A stretch of DNA of 64,000 bases from contig CM114271.1 in NCBI GenBank assembly GCA_050084515.1, positions 48,980,001 through 49,044,000 on the forward strand, given 5' to 3'. Made by a program: the position numbers and the translations under genes. The notes under the pieces are model-generated. The model made no database searches. It had not been told where the DNA came from and saw only the letters and a list, made by a program, of their open reading frames with translations. Below, in pieces: positions 10,601 to 63,756 of this stretch (its first letter is position 1; the number at the start of each line of letters is the position of its first letter). Source of the stretch: Blasia pusilla (taxonomy: Eukaryota).

Positions 10601-11786
10601 CACATAGTTCATGATTTGACAACACCTAGTTGTAAGATTCAAGCCAAGGCTTGCAATAGATAGTGCTATGATGCATATTTGTGAAATTATGACACCAATA
10701 ATGTAGGATGTGTTGGTAGGGAGTATGATTCTATATCCCTTGGGTTCAATCCTTTATTTTTTGGAGAAGACTATTTCTATCAACCAAGGTGGCGATTAGG
10801 TGATGATCAGATGAGCCACTTACCTATGCGGTTTGCAAGATGTAGTAGTGGTGATGGTCCATAAGGTGATAAAAGGACAACCTTAGCAATATTCACAGGC
10901 AGTGTTGGTTGGCACTTGTAGAGGAGTTCGGATTATCCCAAGTGATTAGCGGATTATCCCATAGAGACATATGCCATGATGGGTGTCTCTTCCAATGGTG
11001 CGAAGACTACTTCATTATTATGGGGTACAAGCGTTGACTTATAAAGGAGTGCAAATGAGCTTGTGAGGCAAGTTTGGCGATGAGCCTTCATTCTAGAGAA
11101 ATCAAAGTTGGGGGATGGTTGTGCTCTTGGAGTGGAGACGTTGATGCCCTTGGATACCAAACTCGTTGTGTGGGAGTGTCTTGAGAAGGGTACGATCGAG
11201 AGTGCAAGATCAACATGGGATTTTTGTCAGTGTTACAAGCCAACATACATGTGTATTAGTACCTCTGTATCAAGAGAGATAAGATTGCATGCCACATCTC
11301 TTTACACTATGCAGCAAGATTGATCCTGTAGTATCATGAGTTGTTACTCATATCTACAATATGGATGTACAAGCATATTCTACTCGTCGATATTTTATTG
11401 GGGGCGTAAGAGCATAATTGATATGGTTTGCACCATTCATTTGGTGATTGTTGGATGGCCATTCATTAGCTAGCGAAGGATTAATATTTGGGTTGCACGA
11501 TGCAATACCAACCATGTCTTAGGACATGTTGCGAGTACTATGACACTTTCAAGAGAGCCATGCCTATTATTGTCTAGCGTATATTCTTGAGAATGTGCAA
11601 TTTTTGGGATATACTTTAGGAGTGATGATGACAAGCCTACCATATTGCTAGATGAGGCAAGAGTTGGATCACGTGCATGTATACATGTGATGATTATAGT
11701 GGTCAAACCTTGTACCATCACAGGTGTTGAGGCGAGCTTTTGATGGATTTCACAAAGAGCTGCACTTGTCATGACCATACGGTTTA
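7650..11786 (+). mobile_element. Copy A: highly degenerate DNMT-carrying Gypsy-like retrotransposon (5' repeat, gag, protease, partial DNMT); ends at the start of copy B
   Basis: Starts TGTCACAGG...TAGGCCGAG...GGATAGGG, like the start of copy C. 8640-9020 aligns by eye with gag of C (21355-21725). Remnant DNMT motifs LVIVGWP (~11441-11461) and YILENV (~11580-11597). No long ORFs; the left boundary is approximate. Confidence 0.75.
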
Positions 11787-12133
11787 TGTCGTAGAGTATA
11801 GTGTGCTAGTAGAGGCCATATCTTATGTAGGGCTGTAGTGTCTATGTAGAGATGCGGTTTCATACATAGGGTTGGGGGTTACTCAATGGAGGGTGACTTT
11901 TCCAGTAGGGCCGGCTCTTAGGTTGGAGGATATAGTGTGGAGTGCACTCAAAGAACACTTAGTTCTTTGAGTTGAGCCTGTTGCGTTGGGAGTTAGCCTT
12001 GGTAGTGAGTAGAGCTCTTGGCTATGGTGGTTCCCGCAAGCTTTGACCTGGATTCTCCCATCGTGGAGTGGGTTTGGCTTGATTTTATATGATTCTATAC
12101 GTGTTTTATGACATTAGGTCTTTCATGGATTTC
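11787..12133 (+). repeat. 5' terminal segment (alpha-type) of copy B, followed by a self-complementary PBS (12134-12146)
   Basis: TG start and hairpin at 11946-11972. 12134-12146 ACTCAAAGAACTA is the reverse complement of 11960-11972. Same layout as in copies C and D. Confidence 0.6.
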
Positions 12134-13789
12134 ACTCAAAGAACTAGAATAGATCGATGGTAGCTTCGATTGTGGATCAGTAGGATCTGGTTAGGGTTGA
12201 TTGTGTACTCAGCCGTGGATGTTCGTGGCTTGTGGCCTATGTTGGAGTTGGGAATCTGGTACGTGGTTGGTTGGGAAAGAAGCACCTTACTGAGAGCTTT
12301 CCAATGCGCTTTAGATTTCCGGATTTCGTCAAGGGAGTTGGAAGTTATCAAGGATTGAAGATTCTGGTTCGTGTTCGACGATTTTCTAATGTGGAGAGCT
12401 TGGTGTGCGGAAGCTTTGTTGAAGTTCATCCAGATCGGGTGAGAGGTTCTTGTTGCTACTTGTATTGTGATCTCATGTGAAGCTATCTGCTTGAGTGTGT
12501 GGAGCGTTGCGGATTTCTGCGTGCATGAATGTGGGCGGAAGCGCTGTCGGATTTGCGATTCTGGAGGTGTATGGATAGCAAGTTTGTCTGATTTTTAGCT
12601 CGGTTGTAGCTGATTTTTTGTGGAGAGATAGCTATGGTGGTCAATTGAATTCTGGTTTAAACAGATTCAATTTTGGTCGAGGATTTGTGGAGTAATTGCT
12701 GATCAAAATTTCTTGGATGAGCTCAAGGTCTATGGTGGACAACAGATCGGAGGGGCTGGTTGGTTGGTGACTCGTTCGTTGTTGGAGACGCCTATCCCAT
12801 TGGGGGCCCCTTGGTTGGGCCTCCCTCCATAGCAAAGCATGGCAAAGCGTGGCGAACGGGGCATGTCTCGGCGTTTTGAGGCTTCGAGGCAACTCATGGT
12901 AGCTCGGGGCGAGTGGGCGTGAGAGGCGGAGTAAGGAGCAAGGAGCAAGGAACAAGCAAGCAAGCTTGCTTGCTTGCTTGGGCGTGAGGCAATTTTTGCA
13001 CAATTTGTGATTTGAGTGTTGCATAGTTGGTCACCCATCTTTAGGCTATTCTGCTTGGAAGACACTTAACTGCTGAGTTCTTAACTATGCCAGTGTACAC
13101 ACTCGTGTAGCTCATTTGGTGCTGTTCGGAGATGTGTTAGGCGTTTTATGGTACGGTGTAGCCTCTCCATGCAGGTGATATTTTCAGGTGCTGCGAGTCC
13201 GACTGGCACGTCATTGACCCGCGGCGGAGTAGCTATTGCGTTAGAATTATATGGTGGGTTCTGTGGATTTAGGGGGCGCCACGTTTGGTGGATTGTGTTA
13301 CCTTGATTTCCATTTGCAATTGGAGAGTTGTCATTGGACTTCATGTGTTTGGATCCCCTCCATCGTTGCTTCTTGCTTGCGCGCCCATTGTTAGGATTGA
13401 CGCTAATTTCTAGAGTAGTATTACTCTTGTGTGCTACCGGTAGTGAGGCTGGAGTGATGACCAGTAGATCGTGGGAGGCTTCTTGTGGTGATGACACGTT
13501 AAGTTGCCTACACCCATAGCTAGTAGAGCTAGAATAGTACAGCGACATCGACGTCACTTGGTTACATATTGGTGGTAATTTGGTGGTGGTGCGGCATTGG
13601 CGTTGGTCATCACGGATCTGTCTGGTGGTCTGGTTGGGACCGTGGTGCGGACAGTGGTGGTTTCACACGGAGTGGATTGAGGTATCGGCTTCCTTTTCCA
13701 CTTCCGACGGTTGATGAAGAGGAGGACGAGGGTGTTCCAAACACCGAGTTTTCTACGTTGTTATTGAGTGTTGCAGCTCCATTTATTTG

Positions 13790-15065
13790 GGACATGGACG
13801 GGATATATGGGGCCATGAAGGGCCCACGACGATACTCGGGTACAGTGGGCACCATTGAGTTGGAGGACTTCATGCAGAAGTTTGATACGTGGTGTGATAT
13901 GCAGATGTTGCGGAACGCCACGTTGTTTACACCTTTCTTGGCTTGGAAGGGGTTGTTTCAGCACTTGGAGGGACCATCCATGGATGATTACCATGAGTTT
14001 AGGAAGGACCATGTTGCTCAGATTGAGGCGTGGAGATAATATTGGTTTCCAGGCTATGTGTCTATCACCCATGGTAGTATTGGTAGTATTGCTCCTACTA
14101 TGCCAGCCAACCCGACGTTGAGTGGTACGAGTACGAGCCGGAGTGGGGATACTAGTGGAGGTACCCATAGAGGTACCAGTGGGGGTACGAGTGGAGGTAT
14201 TAGTGCCCCATCATCGTTCAGCCCAGTTGCAGAGTTCTTCAAGAGGTTGAAGAAGAACTATTAGGGAGTGAAGACAGAGAAGTTGAGGAGTCTTCAGGAA
14301 TTTGAGCGAAAGACTAGTGAGAGTCTTTGTGAGACATACACTCGTATGCGATGCTTGATTTTGGTTACCCAGGGTGTGATTGAGGCTCAGGCAGTCCAAT
14401 TTTGGTATGGGATCTTGGACAGAGAGTTACGCCATAGGATACGTGATGTTGCTCTTATGAATGATGATTCACCCACATTGACCCATCTGTTTGCTCTATC
14501 TGAGAAGATTGAGCTTAACATGGTGAAGGAGAGAGTGGTGACATCCGCATTCAGTAAGGATACAACTACTACTTCTCATGTTCAGCAGTCCACCTCATAG
14601 TCTCGTAGTAGTGGTGGTGGTAGTAGTACTGGGAGTCGTGGGGGGTATACACGACCTCAGTCAGGTCCTAGAGGGACACTTGCGCAGAGACCATTGCCTT
14701 CATTTGCTCCCCCACAGCAAGGACAGTCATGTTGGACATATGGAGGTGATGTTAGGAAGTTTTGTCCCCAAGAGGATGGGAGACGGACTTTGGAGGATGG
14801 GCCTCAGTCGGCCCCAACTCAGTGTGATCATTGCGGGAGACCAGGTCATCCTCGAGAGCGTTGCTTTGATCTTCATCCAGAGTTGAGATCAGGCCGCGAC
14901 CGTGGTGGAGTAGCTCCGAGAGGCCGAGGTGGTAGAGGTGGTAGGGATGGTAGAGGTGGACCAGTGGTTGGAGAGCCTACAGTGGCTACCCCTACCACTA
15001 CGACAGAGTCGACTATGGTCGCCAGATTGAGCTTGATTGGAGCAAAAGTTCGCTACTATGGCTAG
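13790..15065 (+). pseudogene. gag: gag of copy B (capsid-like region, CCHC zinc knuckle, GRG-rich tail)
   Basis: ORF fragments 13569-14039, 14268-14600 and 14694-15065 with a CX2CX4HX4C knuckle; homologous to 21500-22740. Confidence 0.85.
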
Positions 15066-15679
15066 TATCCAGCATAGATCAAGTTCGGGAGCAGGGACTT
15101 CCACCTCTTATGGAGGGGATGATCTCTCTTATATGGCGAGTGCAGCATAGGTTGAGGCATGAGCTGCAGTTACAAGAGGAGCCACTCGAGCGTCAGAGCC
15201 ATGTGGTGCTACTGTGGAGTTGGACCCCAGAGGGGTGAGGTGGGAGGCGTGCTAGGCTTCCCAGTCATTCTTGTTGTCTCGAGGTGCTTAGGACTCCATC
15301 CATGGTTCCTACACAACCTATTGAGCCGGCAAAGTGGGGATCGAGGCATCTACATCGCGTCAAAGAGACACGGATGCAAAGATCAAAGGCAAGATTGCGG
15401 ATGGCAACTTCGGTGTTGGGATCCCCATTGTTTTCGGCCACGAAGGCGATGGCTTTAGGAGTTGACTTAGCTCCTGTATTTCAGCCAGCGACCACGTTGT
15501 GTGAACGTGGGGTGTTCTTGGTACACGTCTTTGAGGTGGATGAGGGTGTTGTTGGTGGAGCGACCCTCTATGTCGTGTAGCATTGAGTACCAGTGCTACT
15601 TGGCAGGCAGCAACGGCGAAGATGGATGCATTACCAGCCCGACCACCCATTGAATGTGAGAGGCTTACACTTGGTGTAT

Positions 15680-16100
15680 GTATGTTGGATAACCGAAGTG
15701 GGATATTCCAATTGGTGAGTCCTACAAGATAGGTGTATAGACCAGATACAGTCTTGTTAGACTCTGGTGCCCAACCTTTGATGTTGGGAAAGGCGGCATG
15801 TATTGGTTTGGATATTCGGAGGTCAGAGCTTGAGCCTTGCCCATTCCAGATTCAAACATCACTTGGAGGAGCCAATGATAGGTCTCAATTCATGACACGG
15901 GAGAAGTTTTCTGTACAGTTGAGACCAGATCATGCGACTGATAGCTCCCGATTGGGAGTACCTGCCGTGGTCACATCAGCCGAGTCGTATGATGTACTAG
16001 TTGGAGGAGCAATATTGTACCCGATGGGTTTTCAGATGGATTACTGGACTCAGACAATGTCTTATAGATCTGGTTGGAAGTCCGGGGATGGACGTATGAT
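15680..16100 (+). pseudogene. Retropepsin aspartic protease of copy B
   Basis: VLLDSGAQPLMLG (catalytic DSG) and YDVLVGG. The same motif occurs in copies C (23480), E (38715) and D (45798). Confidence 0.85.
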
Positions 16101-16485
16101 CCAAGTTCTTGTGAGATTTATTTATGGGGCTCGACCAGGAGGGTCTTCCCCAACGGTGTTAGCATCTGTGGCTAGTTTTAGTGGAGTAGTCACTTTCCCA
16201 GGAGACTTTTTGGAGGGTAATGTTTCTGCTATGGATTCTCCTATGGATGAGGAGGTAGAGGAGGTCCTTAGTTTTGCAGCAGTGGCATCCTCATCGTTGG
16301 ATGTGCCACTTTGGAGTTCAGGCGGTGCACTACGGCAGAAGGCTGATCGCCTAGTGGAGGAGGCTTGGTGTGAGGCTGCTATACCTCACGAGGAAGAGGA
16401 GGCCCCACGGCGGACTCCTACTTCTGGTCCAGTTGGGTTATCCCTTTTGGATACTAAACCCATTGTATGGCAGTATCCGCCGGAG

Positions 16486-17430
16486 GGCATTTGTGTGTTA
16501 GATTTCTTTGGTGGGATTAGCACTGGTTTGGTTTTTTGCGATGTTGCACGGTATTCTATCTGGAGATACGTGTATGTGGAGCGAGATGAGACGGCCTAGA
16601 GAGTCTCATCCCGACATATCGGTCAGTTGATGCGGAGATATCCTGAGTTGTTGCCACCATCAGCTATTCGTGGGTACTAGCGTGCTTTGCCGTCACACAT
16701 TGCATTGTTGGGGGCGCAGGACCTTGAGAGGGTTGGTCCTGTGGATTTGGTGATTGCTGGATGGCCATGCCAGGGTCATACACGTGTTGTTGGTGGTGAG
16801 GGATTACACGACCCTAGGTCTCGATTGTCTTGGGAGATGTCACGGATGTTACGACATCTTCAGGTTCATCAGGCGCGTGCTCCAACTTATATTTTGGAGA
16901 ATGTTCCATTGTTGGGTGACACTCGGACCCGGATGATGGCGAGTGTTCATGAGGTGTGGTCTTGAATTGGACCAGCAGTGTTGTTGGATGCAGCGCGAGT
17001 TGGCTTGCGTGCACATCGTCCACGCTTGTGGTGGACAAACTTGTTGCCTAGGGAGGTTCTACATCGAGCATATGATGCAGTGCAGCGGGATCCTTGCCTT
17101 ACAGTGGATAGTATCTTGGATACTGGGCGACTTTCTCAGGTGGTGAGGGTTATTGATTGGTCACCCATGGCAGTGGTGAACCGTGTGGGCCAGCCTAGGA
17201 TGGCACTACCCACATTTGTGAGTTTTCCCTCGTCACATGCCTACAGGGAAGGTAGTCCCGGGCTTGTATGGGATTCTCATGTGCGACAGTTGGTGGAGCC
17301 TAACGTTGATGAGAGAGAGCATGCGATGGGATTTGCTACTGGTGTGACAGCGGTTGCTTCCATTTTTGAGGCTTCACGTCGTCATGTGTTGGGTTAGGCC
17401 ATGGACTTGAATTGTTTGACTTGGATTTTG
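16486..17430 (+). pseudogene. C5 cytosine DNA methyltransferase domain (DNMT3-like) within pol of copy B
   Basis: In frame with the protease: motif I VLDFFGGISTG, II YVERD, IV DLVIAGWPCQG, VI YILENV, VIII AHRPRLWWTNL, IX ERE.AMGF, X RRHVLG*AMD. Disrupted only by point stops. Confidence 0.92.
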
Positions 17431-17712
17431 AGTCTTGGCATGGCCGAGCAGCGTCGACTTTGGACTATGTCTGTGGGTCTTCCACCCCTTGTGATGAGCT
17501 CGATGGCTACTGGGACGATAGAGGCATCGGCTGGGGGCGAGGAGAGTAGTATTTTGCATCCTTAGAGTAAATGGGATGTAATGGCTGGGCATGTGGAGTT
17601 GGTTGCTCATGCTTGTGGAGGAGTTATTTGCTCAGGTGATGGTGTAGCTAAGGGTGTGCTATCTTGTGAGGGGATTGCGTAGCAGCCAATTGAATCATCC
17701 TCTCTGTCTAGT

Positions 17713-19660
17713 GTGCCAATGGAGGAGACTTGGGAGCCATTACTTGGGCCCAAGCTTACGGGAGGTGAGAGACGACGCTTGACACAGTTCCTACGTGCTT
17801 ATAGGAGTTGTTTTGCCTTTAGCATGAAGGAGTTGGGTGCTTTGGTTGGACATGGTATACAGATTGATTTGGCTAGTGATACGCCAATCTTCCGTTGTCC
17901 CTACCGATATAGTGATATGGAGAGGGACCTGATTCAGAGTAAGACGTTGGACCTTTCGGAGGCTGGATTAGTGGAGTTGTCGCATGGAGAGTATGCATCA
18001 GTCATTGTCATGCCTGCTAAAAAGGATGTGCATGGCAACTACACGGATAGGCGGATGTGTGGAGATTACCGTCCTATCAATCGGTAGACCAAGGCTAATA
18101 GGTATGCCATGCCTACACCTGAGGAGATCTTTGATGTGGTGGGACAGGAAAAAAATTTCAGTACTTTGGATCTTCGGGAAGGATACCATCAGTTGCCGAT
18201 TCAAGAGAGTGATAAGGCCAAGACAACATTTTGGGGTGTCAACTCTCATGGCAAGGATTGTTTGTACCAGTGGAAATTCTTACCCTTTGGGTTGAAGAAT
18301 GCACCTGCCGAGTTTCAGAGAGTGATGGAAAGGATCCTAACGGGGTTGGATTTTTTTCGGTGTTACATTGATGATATCTTGGTGTTCGGTAACACGGTGG
18401 AGGAGCATCAAATACACTTGCAGATGGTGTTTGAGCAGTTGAAAGCTCATGGTCTACGTTTGCATCTAGGAAAGTGTAAGTTCTTCCATGAGGATGTTGA
18501 GTACTTGGGTCATGTGGTCTATCTAGGTGGTTTGGGAGTTCAGCAAGCAAAGATGGAGGCTACTGCACTTATTCCCCGTCCGGTAGATGTGAGTAGAGTT
18601 CGGGCATTCATGGGATTGGCGAATTACTATCGAAGGTATGTGAAGGGATTTGGTGCTATGGCAAAGCCTTTGAACCAATTGTTGAAATTAGATCAGGAGT
18701 GGCACTGGGGAGATGATCAGGAGAGAGCTTTGGTGGAGCTTAAGGCCCAGTTGGTGGCGGCGCCTATCTTGAGGAGACCTATCAAAAGGCGGCCATTTCA
18801 GTTACACATTGATTGGAGTAGGTTGGGACTTGGAGTGGTGTTGACACAACATGATGATGAGCACATGGAGTTTGTGGTGGCCTATGCAAGTCGTTCGAAT
18901 AGTGCAGCGGAGTCACGCTACAGTTCATATGAGGGAGAGTGCTTGGCAGTAGTGTGGGGTGTGGCACACTTTAGGTATTACTTGTTTGGCATAGAGTTTA
19001 CCCTTGTTACTGATCACCAACCGCTCAAGTGGTTGATGGAGTCTGACAAGCTTGCACGGTGGGCTCTTATCTTACAGGAGTATGACTTCCAGGTGGTACA
19101 TAGATCTGGAGTTGCCAACCTTGATGCTGATGGGTTGAGTAGGAACCCATGTACTAGCCAAGAGGATGCAACTGGGGCTAGATGGCGTGGCAAGGTTGAT
19201 GAGGAGATGGTGCCAGGTTGGCATGCATCCGCCTTTTTATGTTGGTTAGGAGTGGACTCTAGTATGGAGGACCACATGACATCTTACTCTAGTGAGAGGG
19301 TAGATGGCCAACCTTCAGATCCTAAGGTTGGAGATGGTGGTACGAATCAGCGTGATGTTCATGATGATGCGTTGGTGTTGGAGTTCCTACGTACCAGTAG
19401 GGTGCCAGGCATAGTGAGTGCCAAGGAGCGAGACCGTGTTCTTCAACGTGCTAAGAGGTATCGATTGGAGGGAACACATATTCTCTGTGTGTGGGAGGAT
19501 GGTAGAGTATGAGTAGTGCCGCATTTGGCTCAGAGAGAGCGCATTGTGCGACATGCCTATGAGGAGTTGGGACATTTTGGGGTAAAGCGTACGTATAGCT
19601 TACTCCTTGGTCAGTATTGGTGGCGTGGCATGCATACTCAGGTGCAGCAGTTGGTGTCAC
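17713..19660 (+). pseudogene. pol: Reverse transcriptase, RNase H and integrase N-terminus of copy B
   Basis: RRMCGDYRPIN, LDLREGYHQL, LPFGLKNAPAEFQ, CYIDDILVF, FMGLANYYRRYV, YSSYEGECLA, TDHQPLKWL, DADGLSR. Confidence 0.97.
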
Positions 19661-19663
19661 GTT

Positions 19664-20143
19664 TGTCACACCTGAGTAGCCGATAGGTCGAGATCTATCG
19701 TGGATAGGGCGTAGGAGCCAGCGGACTATCTTGAGTGTAACTTTGTCTCACGGTGTCGGATGAGGTTGAGGATAGGTCCACTATGTCAGGAACGTTGTTT
19801 CTGACAACTTTCATGTTGAGGTCTTTTACAATCGGGTGACTTGTTGACCAGGTCATCCGCCCCTGGTGACCTGTGCGCGCAAGTTACCAAGGGAAGGGCT
19901 TTTTTTAGGGGAAGAGCCTTTTGGCTCTTCCCAACCCTATATAAGAGAGGAAGATGGCTTTCCTAAGCCATCTTTCTCATGTTGGGCCGTTGGAGCACCT
20001 CCCTTGTATGTGTGTGAGCTAAGACTAGGGTGCTAGCGTCCGGATTCCTTGATAGCACAGGGTGGACAAGGCTCGATATGCCGATGTAGATTGAGGAGTG
20101 GAGTTTTAGGCCGGGTGTGCCGTTTTTACTACTCTTTATTTTT
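19664..20143 (+). repeat. 5' terminal segment (alpha) of copy C with TATA box and hairpin; PBS at 20144-20165
   Basis: TATATAA at 19938-19944; hairpin AAGATGGCTT-TCCT-AAGCCATCTT; perfect 22-nt inverted match between 19961-19982 and 20144-20165. Confidence 0.75.
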
Positions 20144-23100
20144 ACATGAGAAAGATGGCTTAGGATTGGTGGAAATTCGTTGTTTGCAGGTAGGCAAGCA
20201 AGTTGCCTTGGTCGGGAGCCCCTGGAGACGTGTGTGTGACGTTTTGTGTGTCATTAATCTGTTCGGAAGGCCGTGGGCGGAAGCGCTGTCCGTTTTTCTC
20301 AGATTTTGCAAAATCAGATGGGGGACAACAGCAAGGTGTAGAGCAGGTTGTGTCGGCAGGAGTAACGTCGTCTTATAGCTCGTGGAATGTCAGGAGTACC
20401 CAAGGAGAAGAGTTAGAGCTTGCAGCCGCCAGGGGGCTGTCAAGTAAAGCGTCCGGTCTAGGGTTAGGGCGCGGCGGCAACGGGCAGGAGCGGACGGGCG
20501 GCGACGGGCGCTGACGGGCGTGGAAGGGGGCGTGACGGGCGTGGACGGGCGCCCCCCTCCCTCCCTCTAACGTGGTAGAACGGACCATAGTCGGTCGGGG
20601 AGTTGTAGCGAACGTGGTTGGTAGGACGGACGAGGTTAGTCCGGCGAACGTGAGTTGAGATTTGCCCGACATGATTGGGAGCCGATCAGGGTGAGTCACG
20701 TTACATGCCGTGCGTGGGGATCGACAGAGGGGTTTGCGCGACATGATGTTTTTGGGGTGCGACAGGGCGTTGCGAGAGTTGACGATGGAGGGGCAGTGTG
20801 CATGATGTCGACGGGTTGTCCGCATCTATTGACGGGAGGATCGACGTGTTGGTCGAGGGGAGTGTTGTGTTGCGGAGATTGTCATATCATGTGGAGGAGT
20901 GCATGTTGACGGTGCAGCAGGTTGGAGGGCGTGATCAGGTTACCCATTCAAGTCCCTTTTCCCGCACTTGTCGTGTGTGATTGAGAGTGCTGGGTATCGG
21001 GTAGTAGCTGCTGCTAGATGGGTGTAGTGACGATGACGAGTGTAGATTCTTTTCATGTGTAGCATGTTGGAGGATATACGGCGGTTGCCGAGTAGGGGTC
21101 GCGTGTATGACCCGAGAGAGTGTCGCTAGGTTAGGTGAGTAAGTTGGGAGGCTCATGGTGAGCCCGAGTGTTGAGAGTGCGTGAGGCCGGGTATGTCATC
21201 ACGGGATTGATGTTAGCATAGGTGAGCTAGTGAGGCGTGTGGGAGACTCTCGGTGAGTCTGAGTGCTTGAGCGGGTGAGATAGGGTTTGTCATCACGGCA
21301 TTCTTCCAGGGTTCGGAAGAACGGGGTAGTGCGAGCAGTGGTAGTGGTGTGACACGGAGTGCAGTGAGATACCGAGGGGTTACCAATGAGGAGCTCCCTC
21401 GACATCCATCCGTGACTAGATCGTCATCACTGGACACTGGGTCTGGTGACGAGATCACCGACAGAGACAGTAGTACTTGGCAAGAGATGGACGACATGGG
21501 CCATCGGGGCATGCGTCGTTTCTCGGGTGCAGTGGGCACCATCGACTTAGATGATTTCATCCAGGAGTTTGACCATGGTGCGACTTCCAGGAGATACGGA
21601 CCCCGACACGGTTCAACCCTTTCATAGCATGGAAGGGGTTGTTCCAGCACTTGGAGGGTCCTCCGATGGATGACTACATGGAGTTTTGATCACTATATTC
21701 AGTAGAGATCGATGCTTGGAAGATGTATTGGGCTCTAGGGTATGTGTCCACTAGTGGTCGCGAGGCATATGATGGGATTGTGAGAGGAGAGAGACCCACA
21801 CCATCAGCCCGGAGACTAGATGGAGAGGAGGGCAGTGAGACAGGCGATGTGGCAGAGACCTCTGGTGGTAGAGGGCCACCCAGCTTCAGCCCCAGAGTGG
21901 AGTTCTTCCAACATTTGGGGAAGAGCTACCAGGGCGTACGCACCGACAAGCTGAAGAATCTACAGGATTTTCAGCGACGATCGGGTGAGAGTCTGAGAGA
22001 GGCATTCACACGCATGAGGAGGCTGATCATTGCTACGTTTGGAGTGATCGAGGCGATCGATCCTGTATTGAGTCTGGGATTCGGACCGAGAACTATGGAG
22101 GAGAGTCCGAGATGCAATGCTGATTCACACGGCGAAGCCCACATTGAAGGTGGTCTTTGAGTTGTCCGAGCGTATTGAGCTCAACATGAGTGAGGAGCAG
22201 GTAGTGACCGCTGGATTTTCTCGAGAGTCGACGGGTCCACGAGCGACGGTGACCCCACAGGTGCCACAGCGAGCACCAGTACCACGGGAGCGAGCAAGTG
22301 TGCCTAGAGAGCAGGGCGGGTACCGTGAGCCTATGAGGCAACGACCCGCACCTACATATGTTGCCCAACAAGGACCGATGTGGTCTTGTTGGACGTGTGG
22401 AGGGGCCCATAGGCACAGAGACTGCCCACAGCATGGGAGAGGACCACCAGCGCCTCCGATTGCTCAAGAGCCACAGAGGATGGCCCCACCACAGCACCAG
22501 TGTGACCATTGCCACAAATATGGTCACACTAGGGATAGATGTTTTGACCTTCGCCGAGGGGCACGTCCAGGTAGGCCGAGGGCCTGGGGGCGGTCGTCCT
22601 GGAGGAGGTCGAGGAGTTCTTCCTGGACGTGGTGGTAGAGGACCACCACCAGCCAGAGGAGATGGAGCAGGAGCACAAGAGCCGGCACTTCTCTCACCCA
22701 TCGATCAGTTGGAGCAGAGGATTGCTGGCATGACGATGATGTAGCTTAGGGAAGGCCCGGAGCTGCGAGCAGCTAGTGTGACTCCAGCTTCTACCTCTTA
22801 CCTTGACCCGGGTGAGGATCTCGCCAGTATGGGGTTTAAGTGTAGTGCAGCCTAGGTTGAGGCAGCTGCAGCGGTGACTTGGGGTGCTGCGAGAGGCACC
22901 GAGCCACCGAGAGGTGGAGTTGAGATTGACCCACCAGAGGGGACCGATGGGCGGTAGGCCAGGGTTCCACAGTCATTCACATTGTCGGAGGCACTACACA
23001 CACCATCAATGGTGCCTCGACGACCAGCGGTGCCTACATCTTAGGCACCTACGTCGACGTCATGAGGAGTTGGAGTGAAAACTCCTATGCCGGCTCGAGT

Positions 23101-24199
23101 GGAGTCAGTGTCGACCATAGTGTTGGAGGTGGCCACTAGAGTGAGTCAGACTCCACTATTTTCCCGCCATAGAGTTGGCGACGTTGGGAGTTGGACCAGC
23201 TGAGGTGTTTCGGCTGGCCGCCATGTTGTGTGAGCATGGAGAGATGACTGCTTCTTGTTCAGAAGTAGTTGAGGAGGTGGTGGACTTGCCCTCAGAGCCG
23301 GTGCTTGGGATGTTCCCCCACAGAGTCATGGCATACGGCGGCGGCGAAGTTGGTAGATACGCCAACTCGACCGACCATAGAGCGAGCAATGGTGACACCT
23401 GGAGTAGTGTTACTGGATAACCGAGCTGGAGTATTTCGCTTGGTTAATTTGACGGGGACAGTATACCACTCGCACCGCGTCCTACTTAATTCGGGAGCGC
23501 AACCCTTGATGTTAGGGAAGGCGGCGTGTTTAGCATTGGGGTTATGGAAGGCCGATATTGAGCCTTGTCCCTTCCACATACAGACCTCGATTGGGAGCGT
23601 GTCACCCACGCAATATATGACTCGACAGGAGATAGTTGTCAGAGTCTAGCCAGAGCATGAGACGGATAGTGCTATGGTGCGCACACGTGCGATTACAACA
23701 CCAGCTGAGTCGTACGATGTGTTGGTGGGGAGTACAGTTTTATATCCCCTAGGATTCATCCTTGACTTCTGGGAGGAGACCGTTGCTTATTGGCCAAGGT
23801 GTCGGTCAGGTGACGTCCAGATGAGTGAGTTACCCGTGCAGTTTGCGGGACGAGGTGGTCGATCACGAGGCAAGTCTGTGACCACATTGGCGGCTTTCAC
23901 AGGTAGTGTTAGCTGGCTAGGAGAGTTATTGGAAGGGAACGCACATGCGGAGGATGTCCTAGTAGCGGATAGTCCCACGGAGAGATAGGTCATGGCGGGT
24001 GTCTCTTCCCATATTGGCAAGACCTCTTCACCATTGTGGGGTACGACTCGAGAGCTATAGAGGCGTGCCGACGACCTCGTGAGGCAAGCATGGAGTCATG
24101 CTTTTATCCCGGAGCTACAAGAGTCACGTGGCGATCGGGCTCTTGGAGTGGAGACGATGACCCCACTAGATACCACACCTGTTGTGTGGCAGTGCCCAG

Positions 24200-25160
24200 A
24201 GGAGGGTGTTAGGGTGTTAGATCTCTTCGGAGGGATTAGCACCGGATTGGCTGCATTATTGTAGGCGGGCATACGGGTGCATCAGTACCTTTATGTGGAG
24301 AGAGATGAGTATCATTACGTCACATGGCGAGTATCATTACGTCACGTGGCGAGATTGGTCCAGAGGTATCCTGAGTTGTTGCCGGTATTTGCCGTTCGGG
24401 GATATCAGCATACACTACTTGCCGACAGCTCTTTGGTGGGGGCGCAGGATCTGGATAGAGTTGGCACCATTCACTTGGTGATTGGTGGATGGCCATGTCA
24501 GGGTCATTCATGAGCTGGCCGAGGATTTGGATTGCAGGATCCGAGGTCAGGGATGTTTTGGGAGATGCTGCAAGTAGTACGACACTTGCAGGAGAGTGAG
24601 ACATGTTCTCCAACGTACATTTTGGAGAACGTGCCATTGTTGGGAGACACTCGTATACGTGTGATGACGAATATGCATCAAGTGAGGTCTTGGTTGGGAC
24701 GTGCTGTGTTATTAGATGCGGCGAGAGTTGGATCACGTGCTCATCATCCGCGACTGTGATGGACGAACCTGATACCATCAGAGGTACTGAGTTGAGCATA
24801 CGATGGAGTCCACAGAGCACCACATCTCACAGTGGATGCTATTTTGGGCTCAGGGCGTCGATCTTAGGTGGTGACACGGGATGATAGACCACCGTTGGCC
24901 ATGGCCAATAGGGTGGGGGAGTTGAGGGCAACCTTACCTACGTTGGTGAGCTTCCCAGCATCCCATGCCTTTCGTCAGGGAGGGCCAGGCATGATTTTGG
25001 ATGAGGTGATTGGAGCATTGGAGGAGCCTACGACAGATGAGCGCGAGCGCGCCATGGGGTTCGCTACCGGTACTACGGCGGTGCCAAGGATGACTGAGGC
25101 ATCCCGGAGACAGGTGTTGGGGTAGGCGATGGACCTCAACTGTCTCACATGGATAGTCAG
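24200..25160 (+). pseudogene. DNMT3-like C5 methyltransferase domain of copy C
   Basis: VRVLDLFGGISTG, YVERDE, LVIGGWPCQGHS, YILENVP, SRAHHPRL*WTNL, ERERAMGF, RRQVLG*AMDL. Confidence 0.92.
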
Positions 25161-27099
25161 CCTAGGTATGGCTGAGCAGAGACGGATGCGAGTGTCATCC
25201 ATGCCGTCATGTCCACGAGTTGGACCATTGCCTACAAGGTCTGTACACGCATTGGTTGGGGGCGAGACGAGGAGAGATAAGCACCCATGGACTTCTTGGG
25301 ACGTCATTCGAGCAGAGAGTGCGAAGGCGGCTAGAGTAGCACATGTTCATTTTTTGGATGTGGAGCATGGTGTAGGAGGTCAGAGTGGAGTGGCTCTTGG
25401 GGAGGTGGCTAGGGTTGCTACATAGCAACCAAAGCCGGAGGTTGCGTCCTCTCCGAGTGAGGTCACAATCGAGACTTGAGAGCCTGTGATAGGTCTCAAG
25501 TTGATAGGAGGAGAGCGACGGTGAGTTCATAGGTTTCTAAGAGGGCATGTAAGTTGTTTTGCCTTCAGTATGAGAGACTTGGGTATGCTTAAGGGTCTCG
25601 GGATACGGATTGAGTTGGCTAGTGATACGCCGATCTTTCGTTGACCCTACAGGTATTCTGATATGGAGCGAGCCTTGATTCAAAGCAGGAGTCACGAATT
25701 GTTGGAGGTAGGACTTGTGGAGTTATCACATGGGGAGTATGCATCTACCATAGTCATGCCGGCGAAGAAGGATATGTATGGCAATTGGACGGATAGGCGG
25801 ATGTGTAGAGATTACCGTCCTATCAACCGACAGATGAGGTCACATCGGTACGCCATGCCTACTCATGAGGAGATCTTTGATGCAGTAGGACATGCGAAGA
25901 TCTTCAGTACTTTAGATCTCCATGCTGGCTATCATCAGCTTCCTATCAAGTTGGAGGACATCTCCAGTTCCACGGTTGAGGAGCATGAGCGACACTTGGA
26001 GGAGGTGTTTCGGTGATTGCAGTTACATGGACTGAAGTTACATCTACGCAAGTGCAGATTCTTTCAGAAGCAGATTGAGTACTTGGGACACACCATATAC
26101 CCAAGTGGGTTAGGCGTTCAGCAGACGAAGGTAGAGGCTATTGCACAGATTCCACGCCCTATAGATGTGAGTCAAGTCCGAGCATTTCTTGGACTGGGGA
26201 ACTTCTATCGACGGTATGTCAAGGGTTTTAGTGCGATCGCAAAGTCTTTGACCTTGTTGACGAGACTTGACCAGGTTTGGTTGTTGGGAGATGATCAGGA
26301 GCGAGCATTTCAAGAGCTCAAGGACAGGTTGACGTCCTCACCCATTTTACAGAGACCGGTTAGGGGTCGCCCATTCCCGTTACATACGGATTGGAGCATG
26401 TTGGGTCTAGGAGCAGTGCTTACTCAGAGGGATGACGAGGAGAGGGAGTTCGATGTGGCTTACGCGAGCCGATCGAGCAACATTGCAGAGGCAAAGTACA
26501 GCTCCTACGAGGGAGAGTGCTTGGCTGCAGTGTGGGCCGTGGCACATTTCAGGTGCTATTTATTCGGAAACCCTTTCACACTTATCATTCATCATCAGCC
26601 GTTGAGGTGGTTGATGGAGTCCGAAAAGCTTACAGGAAAGCTTGTCAGGTGGGCTCTATTACTACAGGAGTATGAGTTTGAGGTGGTTCATAGGCCAGGT
26701 CGGCTGAACTAGGATGCGGATGGGTTGAGTCGTAACCCATGTCCGAGTCAGAGAGACCACACAGGAGCTCGATGGCACGGAGGGAGTGATGAGGAGATGG
26801 TGCCCGGTTGGCATGCATCTGCCTATCTTTGTTGGTTGACTATGGCAGGTCAGCCACATGTGATGACTCCAATGGTGGGGTTGGATGATGAGTCTTTGGA
26901 TCCGGAGATTAGTGAGGAGGCGACACGTGGTCGTGATATCCATAATGACGTGGAGGTTGTGGAGTTCTTGTGCACTGGCGTCATAGCGAGTACAGTGAAT
27001 GCTAGGGAGTGGGATTGGATCCTACAGAGAGCCAGGAGGTTCAGGTGGGAGGGGACTCACATTTTGCGGGTATGGGGAGATGGTAGGATACGAGTGGTA

Positions 27100-28345
27100 C
27101 CTCATCCTTCCCAGCAAGCATGTGTAGTGCGATATGCCCATGAGGAGTTAGGATATTTTGGAGTAAAGCGTACTTACAGCTTACTCTAGGTTCAGTATTG
27201 GTGGCGCGGCATGCATACTAGGGTACAACAATTTGTGGCTAGATGTATGGTATGTGACAGAGTGCGAGCATCCTTCAATGCTCCCACTCCGCAGTTACAT
27301 CCTTTGCCAATTATGGGTTTAGGTTATCGGTGGAGTTTAGACTTTGCGGGACCTTTGCCATTGACGGGGCGTCATCATAGGTACGTGTTGGTCATGGTGG
27401 AGCATTTCTCCTAGACAAGGCGAGCGAGGGAACAGCTTATGCGTTTCTAGATCGTGTGCTTAGTCACTTTGGTGCACCGGCAGAGGTGTTGACTGACCAG
27501 GGTAGCGAGTTCAGGAGAGAGTTTCAGGCCTTGTGTGATCAAAGGCCGAGATCACCGCACCACGTCCAGAGATCATCTTGAGGCGGATGGGTTGGCGGAG
27601 AGAGTGGTACAGACGGTGAAGAGAGGATTGCGCAAGTATGGCTTGCAGTGGGGACAGTTGAGGGAGTGGGACCTACGGTTTCCATGGTTGGCTATGGGTT
27701 ATCGCTTTAGTCGGCAGGCATCCTTGGCGTCATTTTCACCGTACTTTTTGCTCTTTGGGAGAGAGCCAGATTTACCTGCAGCGATTCGATGTGACATGGC
27801 GGAGGTGTTAGATCTTGATGATCCAGATGTGTGGGTACAAGCATGTTCTCAGAGGGCAGAGGTTTTTCGTAGAGTTATGCCTATGGCCTTTGAGAACTTG
27901 CTATTGCCCAACATAGAGATACATTGAGGTACGCGACCATTCGTGGAGGAGGTTATCGTCCAGGGATTAGGAGGTTTCATCTTGGAGATTACGTGTATTT
28001 ACAGCAGGCGGCATCCACGACGCTAGATGTCACTGCAAGGCGCACGATCCTACGTGTGCGCGAGGCATTACCGACCGGAGTCCTCATGTTGGAGGGACGG
28101 GATGGTATGGTTTGGAAGGATCATGTGCGCAATTGTGCAGCATGTCATCTTCCGAACGTAGATGGGACGGTGGATGTGAGCTTGGCAGTGGTACCTGCAG
28201 GCTTGAGGTGTATGTTGTGCGGATCCGCGAGTGGTGCAACCACCATGCTGGTATGTGATGGTTGTTCTCGAGGGTGGCATATGTCATGTCTGACCCCCCT
28301 CTTGATGTGGTTCCCACGGGACGATGGATATATCCGAGATGTGTA
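27100..28345 (+). pseudogene. DDE integrase with C-terminal PHD finger (copy C)
   Basis: HEELG...CMVC zinc domain; WSLDFAG, LTDQG and ADGLAER catalytic triad; then CMLC-x11-CDGC-x4-HMSC PHD. Confidence 0.9.
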
Positions 28346-28386
28346 TAGGGTAGTAGGTCATGTCAGAGAGATGTGATATTTTCTAT

Positions 28387-28562
28387 CTGGAGTTGGGGGG
28401 ATCCAACTGCCAGCTAGGGGGGCGGTTGTGTGATCTCCATGTATATGTATGAGTTGATTTTTGTACATGTGTGGATCGACCCGTGTGCGGGGAAGATCGG
28501 TGTTGTGTGGTGTAGATGTGACCAGCGATGTATGTTGTGTAGCGATATGTATGCGCACGATA
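28387..28562 (+). repeat. Stem-loop, G-tract (PPT-like) and beta terminal segment of copy C
   Basis: CTGGAGTTGG...CCAACTGCCAG hairpin, AGGGGGG at 28416-28422, terminal CAGCGATGTATGTTGTGTAGCGATATGTATGCGCACGATA shared with copies D and E. Confidence 0.75.
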
Positions 28563-31560: not shown

Positions 31561-34500
31561 CTATCTAAAATGCGTCTGGAATAGGGTGACCGTTGCTATG
31601 TGCCCGTTCTTCATGACCTATAAGACAGGTAAATAAGGTGGTTAATATCCTGTTCAAAACAGGTTCACTTTTGTTCATCAGTGTCTCACCAAGTTGCTCT
31701 TCTATTGAGATGTTAGAAGAATTGCAAGTAATGTTCGCCAGGAATCACCTCAAGGTTGTAAATCCTCACCTCAAGGGCAATATTTCTGTAACCATAAACA
31801 AAAGTTGGACCGAATGGATTGCTAACAGAACCCTGTGTTTGAATGGCAGCCCGACCGCCATCTCCCAATATCTCCTGGAGAACATGCCAAAGAGATATTA
31901 CAACATGGACTACCTAGATCAAAGAAATCATTTTGGGGTCCTGTTTGCTACTCTCAGAACTCCTGGTTTAAAAATCCTTAACTGGGAAATGTGAAAGTTA
32001 CAGAGAGTCAAATCCTCTTTAGAGCTATTTCTGCAATTGACAGGGACAGTTAAGACAGAAAGTTGCAAAAACAATCTTCTTACTCTCTTCTCATACTGAG
32101 CTAAAGACAACGGAGACGAGCAGAAGCTTAACCAATACCTGTACTTTGGACCACTTAGTAGTGGTCCAAAGTACAGGTCCTGTTTGCTACTCTCAGAACT
32201 CCTGGTTTAAAAATCCTTAACTGGGAAATGTGAAAGTTACAGAGAGTCAAATCCTCTTTAGAGCTATTTCTGCAATTGACAGGGACAGTTAAGACAGAAA
32301 GTTGCAAAAACAATCTTCTTACTCTCTTCTCATACTGAGCTAAAGACAACGGAGACGAGCAGAAGCTTAACCAATACCTGTACTTTGGACCACTTAGTAG
32401 TGGCTGTAATACAATGATGAACAGCATCTCCATTGGATACAATATTGGGTTCATCACCAACTTCACCTGCTATGGAGCACAACTTAGATGCAAATACCTG
32501 CTCTCCAACAATGTCATCACACAAACAATTCTGAAAAGGGCAATGGGTATATCATGTAAGTAATAGGACTCTTGATGTTCAACGTCTCTTACCAACTGGA
32601 CAATGTATGAAGAAATTGCACTTGATGTAGCAGTTGAAATCCGTGTGGCCAGGGAAGTTTGTATGCAGCACAAACTTCTTAATTCGATGACTCTTGAGGT
32701 TGAAGAACCACGAACAATTCAGTAGGTTGTCAGACAGCTACCAACACATGGCCTAGCAAACCCTATGAGCTTCCTTTGGAGAATTATTCAAATCATTTTG
32801 ATCAGGAAAGAAGTATGGACTAGTTCCTTGCAAATCCCCCTGATTGCACCAACAAAACAGCATGCTTCCAAGGTGAAGCATTCCATTACATATGCTAAGT
32901 TCAATTAATAATGTGAATCCATACTGGAACCAGATGAGGTGTCCCAAATGAATAATAGAAGCGCTTAAGAAAACTACCTGGCCATCAAAGAGGATATCCA
33001 AACCACGGGTGAAGTAGTTGTAAAAATAATCTCCACATAAGGCAGTTCGTGGTCTTGGGTCAGATGCAGAATGAATCACCATTGGATCAACCTGAAGGAA
33101 GGCACATGGATTCCATTGAGAGGATTGCTATCAACCATCCCAAAAATATGTTAACAGTAATTTATGGTTGAATGTATTTCTTTAGTAGAGTGCGATATTA
33201 GAAGTCATGAAGATAATCATGGGCATTCAGGACTAAACTCATTTGAAACTTGCTCAAAATGAGTGAGTGATGGTTGTCCAACACGACAGGTTTGATTTGA
33301 AAGATAATCTCAGATCTCTCTTGATAGATTGCTTCAGATTTATCTACACCACAAAACTGATGTCCCATACCTGCTTTTGATGTATGCCATCTGGTCGTCC
33401 AAGCGTTGCCCAAACATCCTGAGAAGTCAAGTTGAGTGTAAGTTATCAACGTCATCAAGAAGTATCTGTTGTACACTTACAAGATACATGACCAGGGAAC
33501 AGGTGAAGTTACCCCAAGGAATTATTTATACTGACCTGTGGAGATGCTCCGAAAGGTAACCGTCGTCCACCACTAAAACACAAATCTTCTGCTAGCTGCG
33601 TAATAAAGAGGAAATCATGTGAAATCTCTAGCTGTCAAGGTAATTAATTTCCCAGCCTTCATCAAGTATAAATGGGCACTAGTAAACTACAGGAAGGCTC
33701 TTGGACAGACATGATGAAATTAAGTACAGTTGATAGTAAGTTATCATAAATATATGTCTTACCATCCCAGAATCAAAGGCCATATTGCCATACGTCTAAA
33801 AGATTTCCATGGAAATCTTTTTAGACGTAGTAAGGAGGACTGTATGAGTTTTTGTGTCCCATGCTCTCTATGTTCAGGTAGTAAGCAGGATCTATAATTT
33901 GTTATCCTGCTTACTACCTGAACATAGAGAGCATGGGACACAAAAACTCATATAGTCCTCCTTAGGAGTGAAACTTCCAAAAGACAAATTTAAAACTCAT
34001 GAAGATTTGCAGCCATACCTTTGCATGCACTTCTTCCATATATGAGCTCCCTGATGCCAGCTGGGGAACTACTGCCTTCTTTAGCAGCCCTCCAACTCCC
34101 ACACCTCCTCCTGCTGTACTATCATAGATGCAAACTCGTGACATTACCGGGGTAGTGCCATCTGGAAACTCCAGCGGTAGCTCTGCTGCTGATCCACGAC
34201 AGACTTGTCATTCCAGTTTCAAATCATTAATTTTAAGTTATTGGGCTACAACTCTACAATCTATAAAGATGCTGGGAAAATACAAAGAATTGGAAACTCG
34301 AATCAGCTCCAACCTTCTCGATGCTGGCAGCATTCTGTGTACTGAGCAGGAATAGGAAATGCAAAGGATAGGCCCTGTCACAAAAATAAAAAATAAATAT
34401 TTAGTGAAGTGGCATCAAAGCACGCAAATCAAATGCTGGTTGAACAACAGAAGACTGCAATCACTTCAAAACCCAATGAATGGACATGAGGTCTGACCTT

Positions 34501-39600: not shown

Positions 39601-40473
39601 CACACCATCGAGCGTGGTTCTGGGTACTACACATGGAGATCCAATTTTGCAATTGGCTGTAGGGGAGCAGACAAGTTTTGTTGTCCGAGACGGGGTTGCA
39701 CCATAGCAACCACCGACACCCGCACTAGAGAGTCCTACTGTAGTCACAATGGAGACTTGGGAGCCAAATATGGGCCCTAAGTTGACAAGAGGAGAGCGGC
39801 GTCAGATACACCAGTTCCTTAGGAGTTATAGGAGCTATTTTGCATTTAGTATGCATGATTTGTGTACGTTGAAGGGTCCAAGGATCCGCATTGAGTTTTC
39901 GAGTGACATATCGATGCCCGTCAAGAAGGATGTGATTGATGGATAGGCGGATGTGTGGAGATTACCGACGTATCAATTAGCAGACGAAGTCTGATGGGTA
40001 TGCCATGCCTATTCCTAAGGAGATCTTTGATGCTATTGGGAATGCAAAGGTCTTCAGTTCGTTAGATCTTCGAGCTGGATATAATCAACTGCCTATCAGA
40101 TTGGAGGACATGCAGAAGACAACATTTTGGGGCATCGATCCTTACAAGAAGGATTGCTTATACGAATGGCGGTTGTTACCATTTGGGTTAAAGAACGCCC
40201 GGGCTGAGTTTCAGAGGGTCATGATAGGATCTTGGCAAGTCTAGAGTTTGCTAGATGTTATATTGATGACATTGTAGTCTTTAGCGTCATGGTTGAGGAG
40301 CATGGGCGACATCTAGAGGAGGTATTTTGACGATTGCAGTTACATGGGCTGAAGCTACATCCAGGCAAGTGCAAGTTCTTCTACAACCAGATTGAGTACT
40401 TGGGTCATACGATATACCGAGGTGACCTTGGTGTGCAGTAGATAAAGGTAGAGGCTATTTCACACATTCCACG

Positions 40474-41231
40474 TGTCGTGCGCATACACATCGCTACACA
40501 ACATACATCGCTGTAACCGAACACACACACAAACATGCACGATCCCATGCTAACTCATGGCATCCAAACACAGAGACGAGAATTACCAAAATATCTCCAA
40601 TATAGTAAGATCCAATCTCTCTCTATACCATCTCACACCATAGCTCTCAAAGGTGTGCACTCTCTTTCATGTCAAACCAAACCCACTCTCCTAATGAGAG
40701 GCTTGGCTTACATTCACAAGGCAAGGGACTGTAGCTCCGCCATCTCATGCCAAGAGGTTCAACAAAGAAAGAATGAGCTCTCAAGCTCTCTCTCCTTTAG
40801 GTATACCCCTCCCCTCTCCCAAGCTCTCTCCATGGTAACCTATTCTCCCAAGTCACCTCCTTGGCTCTTGACCTGATGTAGGAGGTCAAGGGCCACTTAC
40901 CAAAAATACAATGGTGATCACATACTCAAATGGTACTTACCTAAAATAGTAAGTTTCTCAATATGACTCCAAATGAGCCGAACGTGCTCTCTCAGGTTTC
41001 CCGGGGCCTGAACAGGTCATCCTCAACCTACTGAGGCTCTCCTCCACTACTCACGAAGGCGCTCTACTAGATCTCACCGATCTATCCTAAAAGACGTGAC
41101 AGTTGTCGTGCACATACATATCGCTACACAACATATATCACTGTCACCGCACACACACACAAACACGCACGATCCCATGCTAACTCATGGCATCCAAACA
41201 CAGATGCGAGAAGTACCAAAATATCTCCAAT
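40474..41231 (-). repeat. 3' terminal beta1-alpha2-beta2 block of copy D (beta1 41231-41104, alpha2 41101-40602, beta2 40601-40474)
   Basis: Two ~128-bp direct repeats flank a ~500-bp segment that is repeated at 46366-46868. The beta1/alpha2 junction reads GACA-AC-TGTCAC; a G-tract precedes beta1. Confidence 0.92.
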
Positions 41232-44200: not shown

Positions 44201-44789
44201 CAAGTCCTGGCTCCTACTGTGAATCAGAGCCCTCTCCATATCACTGTACCTGTAGGGTCGTCGGAAGATCGGCGTATCACTCGACAACTCAATGCGGATC
44301 CCCGGTCCCTTCAGCGTACCCAAATACTCCATGCTAAACACAAAGCAACTCCTATAATTCCTGAGGAATTGATGTATTCGGCGCCGCTCTCCTCTTGTCA
44401 ACTTAGGGCCCATATCTCGCTCCCAAGTCTCCATCGTGACTATGGTAGGACTCTCCGGTGGGGATATCGATGGTTGCTATGGTGCAACCCTGTCTCGAAC
44501 AACAACACTCGGCCGCTCTCCTACAGCAAAATGCAAACTCTGATCTTCTCCTTGTGTAGTGCTCGGAACCACGCACGATGCTGTGGCTATCATCTCCTGA
44601 CGTACTTGCAAAAAATCCTAAGAAGTCCAAGGGTGTCTCTCTTGATCTCCCCTGGTGTGTAGATCTCCTCGGGTCTCGCCCCCAGCCATTGCCTCCATTG
44701 TCTTGGTAGGCATGGGGCTCACCAACGCAACCGCTGTGATCTGTTGCGATCTCATCCGATGCTGCTCAGCCACTCCCAAGCTGAAGATC

Positions 44790-60571: not shown

Positions 60572-63756
<3,185 letters not shown>

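Follow-up and report, generated by a model that had tools for sequence, protein, structure and literature searches.

How a retrotransposon begins reverse transcription when its primer binding site (PBS) does not start with TGG, as a typical tRNA-type site would, is the question raised by a 64,000-nucleotide (nt) stretch of the Blasia pusilla genome (contig CM114271.1 of assembly GCA_050084515.1, positions 48,980,001 to 49,044,000 of the forward strand), referred to here in its whole length as the window. The window contains several decayed copies of one Ty3/Gypsy-type retrotransposon family, among them the elements labeled B, C, D, and E. An earlier note on this DNA had suggested that these elements prime with the 5' end of their own transcript, by the mechanism of Tf1 with a longer duplex and a competing hairpin. 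In Tf1 of Schizosaccharomyces pombe, the 11 nt at the start of the RNA anneal to the PBS, and RNase H cleaves just behind them; to our knowledge, self-priming has been demonstrated only for Tf1 and elsewhere is a prediction, made for close relatives of Tf1 and for a few plant clades. Studies related to Tf1 reportedly include those of Lin and Levin in 1997 and of Atwood-Moore and coworkers in 2006. The position of the complementary segments at a repeat boundary, their recurrence with different sequences, and the lack of a PBS starting with TGG all support the suggestion, and Tf1-like self-priming is, as judged from sequence, probably the best explanation of the complementary pairs described below.

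In element C, segment r (19961-19982, TCCTAAGCCATCTTTCTCATGT) is a perfect reverse complement, 22/22, of 20144-20165, the predicted PBS, which runs from the first base after the 5' repeat onward; BLAST against the whole window gave this match an E value of 2e-5, and r begins 17 nt past the end of a TATATAA motif (19938-19944). Element B has a perfect pair of its own, 13/13, between segment r (11960-11972), the predicted RNA 5' end and proposed self-primer, and its predicted PBS (12134-12146), with a sequence unlike that of C and with a TATA-like motif, ATATAG, upstream at 11930-11935 (TATAAAG in relatives). When the 24 nt spanning the repeat end were compared with the 275 nt upstream, the longest complement was 13 nt in B and, inside that frame, 21 nt in C, lengths that 0/300 shuffles reached in either element; the same held for the observed length in 8 of the 11 elements tested. 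A further example, drawn from D and E, stood in its positions only: ACAAAGAG lies at 46365-46358 on the minus strand and CTCTTTGT at 49718-49725 of E, as had been claimed, but this 8-nt match is at chance level, and the D example is without evidential weight. The motif TGRRCC, described as following each paired segment, is indeed found directly 3' of r as TGGGCC in C (19983-19988), TGAGCC in B (11973-11978), and TGAACC in D/E (49726-49731). It also follows r in 7 of 10 B-like copies, and it is complementary to the outer portion of the 5' arm of the hairpin (GGCTCA) in B-like copies, not in C or D/E.

The report that no TGG-type tRNA PBS is present likewise holds for the repeat boundaries of B, C, and D, from which TGG is absent. 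None of the C, B-like, L038-like, L017, L033, and D boundaries has a PBS starting with TGG; the first bases after the 5' repeat are ACATGAG (C), CTCAAAG (B-like), TCTAGAA (L038-like), CTTGACA (L017), ACTTTCC (L033), and AAAGAGG (D). A tRNA scan of the window and of 46 of the 80 related loci introduced below (those of at least about 7 kb) yielded no usable tRNAs.

The repeats themselves are unusual. Metagenome contigs, scanned with an alignment of relatives, yielded 80 loci, 17 of which have a complete 3' end of the form B1-NN-A2-B2, and in these 17 loci as well as in D and E, self-comparison and a junction scan gave the layout A1, interior, B1-NN-A2-B2. Two complete identical long terminal repeats (LTRs) flanking an interior, as in canonical Ty3/Gypsy elements, were not encountered; the repeats are split instead. 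The segment of B that had been called alpha does correspond to a repeat, A1 (11767-12134, starting TGTCATGACC and aligned with the A repeats of 10 B-like metagenome copies), but a split repeat has a second part, B, so that alpha falls short of a whole LTR. A G-run stands directly before B1 in 17/17 complete 3' ends; in C the polypurine tract (PPT), AGGGGGGC at 28416-28423, adjoins repeat B. At the A2|B2 junction, the final base of A is joined to the first base past the G-run. The boundary in C was set from RNA, for which three raw runs of the same species label and the contigs of X1 were used: reads join 20143 to 28424/28425 (3-9 per run in the three runs, as well as X1 contigs), a joint that represents A2|B2 in expressed copies of the C type. 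Repeat A1 of C, which starts TGTCACG, therefore spans 19655-20143, and the complement of r starts at the next base, 20144. Two loci (L017:8480-9317 and L033:3600-4791) run PPT, B, NN, A, PBS, and start of the interior, which could be a tandem or circular form or else an assembler walk from A2 to A1 of a multi-copy element.

To assess how general the pairing is, we examined A|interior boundaries in the 80 loci and the window. The ends of A were located through the A2 copies of 16 of the 17 loci, L054 being left out with an A2 of only 73 nt; L039 and L057 (second samples of the L035 and L058 insertions), L002, L041, and L049 (sequence other than a PBS after A), and a doubtful minus-strand site in L067 were dropped. 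A perfect complement of at least 10 nt is present at 16/23 boundaries, with lengths of 21 nt in C of the window, 16 nt in L017 and L033, 15 nt in L042 and L052, 13 nt in B of the window, L023, and L073, 11 nt in L035, L038, and L043, and 10 nt in L016, L025, L048, L051, and L066. At A2|B2 boundaries, compared with the same upstream sequence, a complement longer than 6 nt was found in 0/18 (Mann-Whitney p 2.5e-7). Copies within a lineage share ancestry and are not independent, so the count of lineages outweighs the p value. The complement of r starts at the end of A or at most 3 nt from it in every lineage, and at 0-3 nt in the B-like and L038-like copies, where A1 was compared with A2.

At least five lineages use different r/PBS sequences: ACTCAAAGAACT in B-like copies, ACATGAGAAAGATGGCTTAGGA in C, AATTCTAGAAAAACT in L038-like copies, ACTTGACAAGAATGTC in L017, ACTTTCCGAGAGTGAG in L033, and AATCACCAAAGAG in the L035-upstream/L074 group, an element that lies upstream in L035 and is found again in L074. 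As to the covariation between subfamilies that had been put forward, positions flanking a short purine-rich core differ and complementarity is kept. The earlier note had also named an absence of complementarity in other subfamilies as evidence to the contrary; the B-like, L038-like, L017, L033, and L035-upstream/L074 groups all carry the complement. The reverse transcriptase (RT) of L038-like elements is about 41% identical to that of B, and the pattern is seen again between lineages whose RTs are about 40% identical. Among the 80 loci, the A repeats of C type and of D/E type had no relatives. Some B-like copies also have a second 11-nt site complementary to the PBS (TTCTTTGAGTG), located 84 nt upstream of it in the unique 5' (U5) region (L035:4504-4514 and L043:4578-4588); this site is partly kept in other B-like copies and absent from B of the window.

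The TATA spacing would fit a transcription start at r. Segment r starts 23 nt after the TATA motif in C, 29 nt in B, 26 nt in L017 and L023, 32 nt in L042 and L052, 34 nt in L073, and 30 nt in the L035-upstream/L074 group; L033 has no TATA motif at a distance of 23-34 nt. In most lineages the predicted start sits in the middle of a DNA palindrome. The corresponding hairpin of C (19947-19978; stems 19947-19960 and 19965-19978, 14 bp with a 4-nt loop) has a folding energy of -22.4 kcal/mol and a z score of -4.6, with 0/200 shuffles as good, and those of B (11944-11972; stems 11944-11956 and 11962-11972; z -2.4, 2/200 shuffles) and E (49689-49724; z -2.1, 6/200 shuffles) are weaker. The paired segment had been described as the 3' arm of a local hairpin in each case. 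In C, B, and E it does cover the loop and 3' arm, with four further nt in C, but the L038-like lineage has no hairpin (z +1.6), so that the hairpin is best regarded as an accessory outside the core mechanism. With the RNA assumed to start at r, r and the PBS are paired to each other in the fold of minimum energy in 7/7 cases.

The family is transcribed. Sense-strand transcripts of B-like and C-like copies are present, and reads across B1-NN-A2 number 17-64 per run. RNA depth drops between 11958 and 12085 (from 154 to 38 in X7), which fits a poly(A) site inside A. Some reads from B-like copies step back 289 nt within repeat A (12084 to 11796; 3-8 per run), a joint that could reflect a tandem partial A in some paralog or could be another kind of joint.

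Complete copies bear on how the elements may integrate. Five complete copies and D start with TGTCATG (TGTCACG in D) and end with CACGACA or a one-base variant, and 4-bp target duplications flank all six, four of them perfect (CATA, AATC, GGTC, and TGAC) and two with one mismatch. The flanks of D are CATG and CGTG, and the uninterrupted sequence in B, C, and D has the target CGTG once. The inner B1|A2 junction is the palindrome CACGACA-NN-TGTCATG, similar to an LTR-LTR circle junction. A rule by which A1 would always start with TG and A2 with TA was rejected, as, of all junctions scanned, about 15 had TG and about 7 had TA.

One locus may preserve a trace of the priming step itself. L023:3244-3878 consists of PPT, B1, NN, A, and PBS, after which the first ~176 nt of A reappear as their reverse complement; the inverted copy begins exactly at the PBS and ends in ...GGTCATGACA, the canonical element terminus, beyond which lies unrelated flank. 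Its arms are 94.3% alike, and an assembly artefact of identical arms is therefore not the explanation. Such an arrangement would be expected to arise when the PBS at the end of a plus strand anneals to r and is extended, or when a 5'-extended self-primer is copied, and it looks like an integrated snap-back product of reverse transcription.

These observations are consistent with the following cycle. Transcription would begin about 23-34 nt after the TATA box within repeat A, and segment r, the leading 12-22 nt of the RNA, would pair with the site directly after repeat A; the RNA would then be cut at the 3' end of r, as in Tf1, and r would prime minus-strand DNA. Repeat A would end precisely at the PBS because r primes the minus strand there, and the G-run PPT directly before repeat B would prime the plus strand. 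Since A ends at the predicted minus-strand start and B starts after the PPT, the repeat formed by reverse transcription would be B-NN-A, with the PBS as the site that follows A. The ends of such B-NN-A complementary DNA (cDNA), which have neither TG..CA nor inverted repeats, would be joined precisely, the end of A to the start of B, and the integrase would open the palindromic B-CA NN TG-A site of one repeat, so that the integrated form would read A, interior, B-NN-A-B, have TG..CA ends, and be flanked by a 4-bp target duplication. The predicted start falls downstream of the hairpin's 5' arm, which would therefore accompany the 3' copy of r alone; the hairpin could mask that copy, and the 5' copy would be the one able to pair with the PBS. 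The complete scheme amounts to a permuted retroviral cycle, in which a self-primed B-NN-A product with non-substrate ends is joined and opened by integrase at the internal CA-NN-TG, every copy is a circularly permuted provirus, and the start palindrome acts as a decoy masking the 3' self-primer; we put it forward tentatively, as a possibility with somewhat less than an even chance of being right in full.

Several results weigh against self-priming or against parts of this scheme. In D, the longest complement of its own is 6 nt, a length reached by 170/300 shuffles, and a total of 7/23 boundaries (L001, L005, L021, L055, L058, L070, and D of the window) have a complement of 6-8 nt only; we read these seven as decayed, which is an assumption. 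A generic scan for a TATA motif with an inverted pair was weakly enriched, with 20 forward and 11 reverse-complement cases vs 12 and 8 in controls. If the RNA is taken to start 20 nt further upstream, the local hairpin beats the PBS in B, L017, L033, and L016, and does not win in C, L042, and the L035-upstream group. The sole pile of read starts is at 11928, within the TATA-like motif of B, in 1/3 runs (X6, 30 of a depth of 116), and may be the point at which the window copy diverges from its expressed relatives. The inverted copy of L023 is a pattern seen in 1/80 loci only. A half-tRNA or other small RNA that shares the CAAAGA-like purine-rich core of several PBSs might conceivably be the primer.

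This last point belongs to a broader alternative, in which the r-PBS match is a long-range stem of the 5' leader, serving packaging, dimerisation, translation control, or 5'-end protection, while a tRNA fragment or other small host RNA primes at the same place. A common host primer could explain the purine-rich core shared by several PBSs (TCAAAGAA, ACAAAGAG, CCAAAGAG, GAGAAAGA, and GACAAGAA), and the additional complement that some B-like copies (L035, L043) have 84 nt before the PBS is what structured leaders show. Outside the core, however, PBS sequence varies from lineage to lineage, each PBS matching its element's own repeat over 12-22 nt, and no PBS starts with TGG. The pairing also stops at the repeat boundary, which a purely structural stem does not require, and the inverted copy in L023 begins exactly at the PBS. 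On balance we consider this alternative unlikely.

We give still less weight to the view that the start-site palindrome and the third copy after A are protein-binding sites at the DNA level, for a promoter factor or for a recombinase or integrase in the manner of the three symmetry elements of FRT, with no role in priming. The 5' arm of the hairpin nearly copies the PBS in B and C, which makes three related DNA elements, and a palindrome centred on the start site could bind a dimeric factor. What makes this reading very improbable is that the L038-like lineage has the r-PBS pair and lacks the hairpin, that integration ends are elsewhere (TGTCATG...CACGACA, with 4-bp duplications), and that the third copy always adjoins the repeat end, for which a binding site offers no reason. 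Lastly, the matches might be chance or the leftovers of rearrangement in old, decayed copies, as the D example at chance level and the heavy rearrangement of the window copies could imply. Such an origin is scarcely credible given that none of the 300 shuffles reached the matches of B or C, that the complement occurs at 16/23 boundaries and at 0/18 control boundaries, and that lineages with RTs about 40% identical share the pattern. Tf1-like self-priming remains the reading that we prefer.

The coding content of the window supports the family assignment. RVT_1 and RT_RNaseH domains were found on open reading frame (ORF) pieces at 18088-19512 and 26017-26712, a partial C-5 DNA methylase (PF00145) at 16681-16965 in B and at 44933-45598 on the minus strand in D, and a PHD finger on an ORF piece at 27894-28376 in C. 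The RT-RNase H ORF of B shares 76% identity with a protein of Marchantia polymorpha, the best hits of the elements being to Marchantia, and its further relatives come from Klebsormidium, Chara, Closterium, Tetraselmis, and many metagenome proteins. In intact relatives (P0036, P0014, P0002) the order is aspartyl protease, DNA_methylase, RVT_1, RNase H, Integrase_H2C2, rve, and PHD, and this Pol order recurs in C at 23299-28342 (tblastn). The nearest solved structure in the PDB is Ty3 (E 1e-60). The domain order with rve, together with Ty3 as nearest structure, places the elements in a Ty3/Gypsy-type family with a DDE integrase. No Phage_integrase (tyrosine recombinase) occurs among the relatives' domains, in which rve and Integrase_H2C2 were found instead. 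A PHD finger is present in C and most relatives; a chromodomain (PF00385) appears in 2/120 among the matches listed, and the chromodomain at the integrase C-terminus by which chromoviruses are recognized was not found in C or most relatives.

The window copies are heavily rearranged. Elements A, B, and C stand head to tail on the plus strand (11600-19656 and 19655-28562), each earlier interior being broken at a different point, at the next A1. The decayed gag-pol of B (14223-19656) has its DNA methyltransferase (DNMT) at about 16741-16932 and RT-RNase H at 18088-19512, and is truncated within the integrase zinc finger (tblastn). The decayed pol of C (23299-28342) runs from protease to the PHD finger (about 28209-28298), and its repeat B1 (28424-28562) ends in CACGATA followed by NN, with A2 and B2 missing. 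We had considered C as the product of a one-repeat circle (A, interior, B) and rejected this, as the NN after its B repeat marks a broken copy; no target duplication was found for C, with TTGG on the left and no match on the right. On the minus strand, the rearranged D (40474-46868) comprises A1 (46868-46366), a residual PBS (46365-46351), B1 (41231-41104), A2 (41101-40602), and B2 (40601-40474), and it is nested in another copy, represented by F (37689-40473) and by E from 46869 onward. A protease-region fragment of D (45757-46350) is inverted directly after A1 and gag is missing, yet the element was inserted with a target duplication. The 3' end of E (49248-50011, plus strand) comprises B1 (49248-49366), A2 (49380-49888), and B2 (49893-50011), with the hairpin and CTCTTTGT located as given above.

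Other features were noted along the way. The plus strand shows a strong skew of G over C (0.16-0.31) at 8000-30000 of the window, where the three sense-oriented copies lie. A 228-nt sequence is present twice at 31937-32403, the two copies being 100% identical with starts 239 nt apart, and a tubulin gene with at least two exon-like ORFs (Tubulin and Tubulin_C domains) lies at 61909-63756. Among the metagenome loci, weak pairs were noted at L003 9557 and L070 15408. A 21-nt pair in L058 (17895/18085), found in L059 too, was rejected as an LTR signal, since its two members are the 21-nt terminal inverted repeats that bound a small foldback element of about 210 nt (L058:17895-18105 and L059:13148-13361, in opposite orientations).

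Compared with known self-priming elements, the family resembles the Tf1/sushi group, including Tcn1, in having no tRNA-type PBS, a site after the 5' repeat that is complementary to the predicted transcript start, and a Ty3/Gypsy-type RT-RNase H. It differs from Tf1 in the length of the duplex, 12-22 bp here and, as generally given, 11 bp in Tf1, and from the Tf1/sushi group in the start-site palindrome of most lineages, a PHD finger in place of a chromodomain, a DNMT in Pol, and split repeats; the likeness described here is one of mechanism. Among plants, self-priming has been predicted for the Tcn1 clade of mosses and club-mosses and for the TAR copia lineage (Neumann et al., PMC6317226), in a source whose excerpted text does not mention Marchantia, Klebsormidium, or PHD, and one Selaginella Tcn1 element is described, in the portion of the source at hand, as having neither tRNA priming nor self-priming (Novikova et al., PMC2864245). 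Closest in organization is KnitGypsy-Dnmt3 of Klebsormidium nitens, for which the available part of the report describes a DIRS-like repeat arrangement with Gypsy domains (de Mendoza et al., PMC5890265): like the present family, it has a Gypsy Pol with an embedded Dnmt3-like domain and repeats in the order A, coding region, B-A-B. That part of the text is silent on PBS, PPT, target duplications, and a palindromic B|A junction, and the window copies are closest to Marchantia (76%), with Klebsormidium proteins among the matches at 41-45% identity. The literature searched contained no account of how the DNMT/PHD family primes or integrates.

The repeat order A1...B1-A2-B2 is shared with DIRS, PAT, and Ngaro, which use a tyrosine recombinase and make no target duplication, whereas here a DDE integrase with a zinc finger is present in intact relatives, and copies carry TG..CA ends and 4-bp duplications. 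A second point of reference is the retroviral two-LTR circle, whose palindromic LTR-LTR junction can be cut by integrase. The integrated form seen here corresponds to a two-repeat circle opened at the CA-NN-TG palindrome, with A2|B2 as the U5 end joined to the start of the unique 3' (U3) region; unlike in the two-LTR circle, the palindrome lies inside the reverse-transcription repeat (B/A) and not at joined cDNA ends, and its opening would be the normal integration route and not a by-product. Split repeats with an internal site for the integrase, as proposed here, set the family apart from all self-primers described so far and are more novel than the priming itself. They bear, together with the DDE integrase, on the puzzle of how elements with "DIRS-like" repeats and Gypsy enzymes integrate, and the layout points to a testable intermediate, joined cDNA ends cut at an internal palindrome; as the family is transcribed in current RNA data, experiments are feasible. 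The longer duplexes and the added hairpin provide natural sequence variants for probing what the mechanism requires. Taken together, the comparison suggests a Tf1-like logic at work in what looks like a separate Gypsy lineage, one found in liverworts and streptophyte algae and equipped with a DNA methyltransferase of its own.

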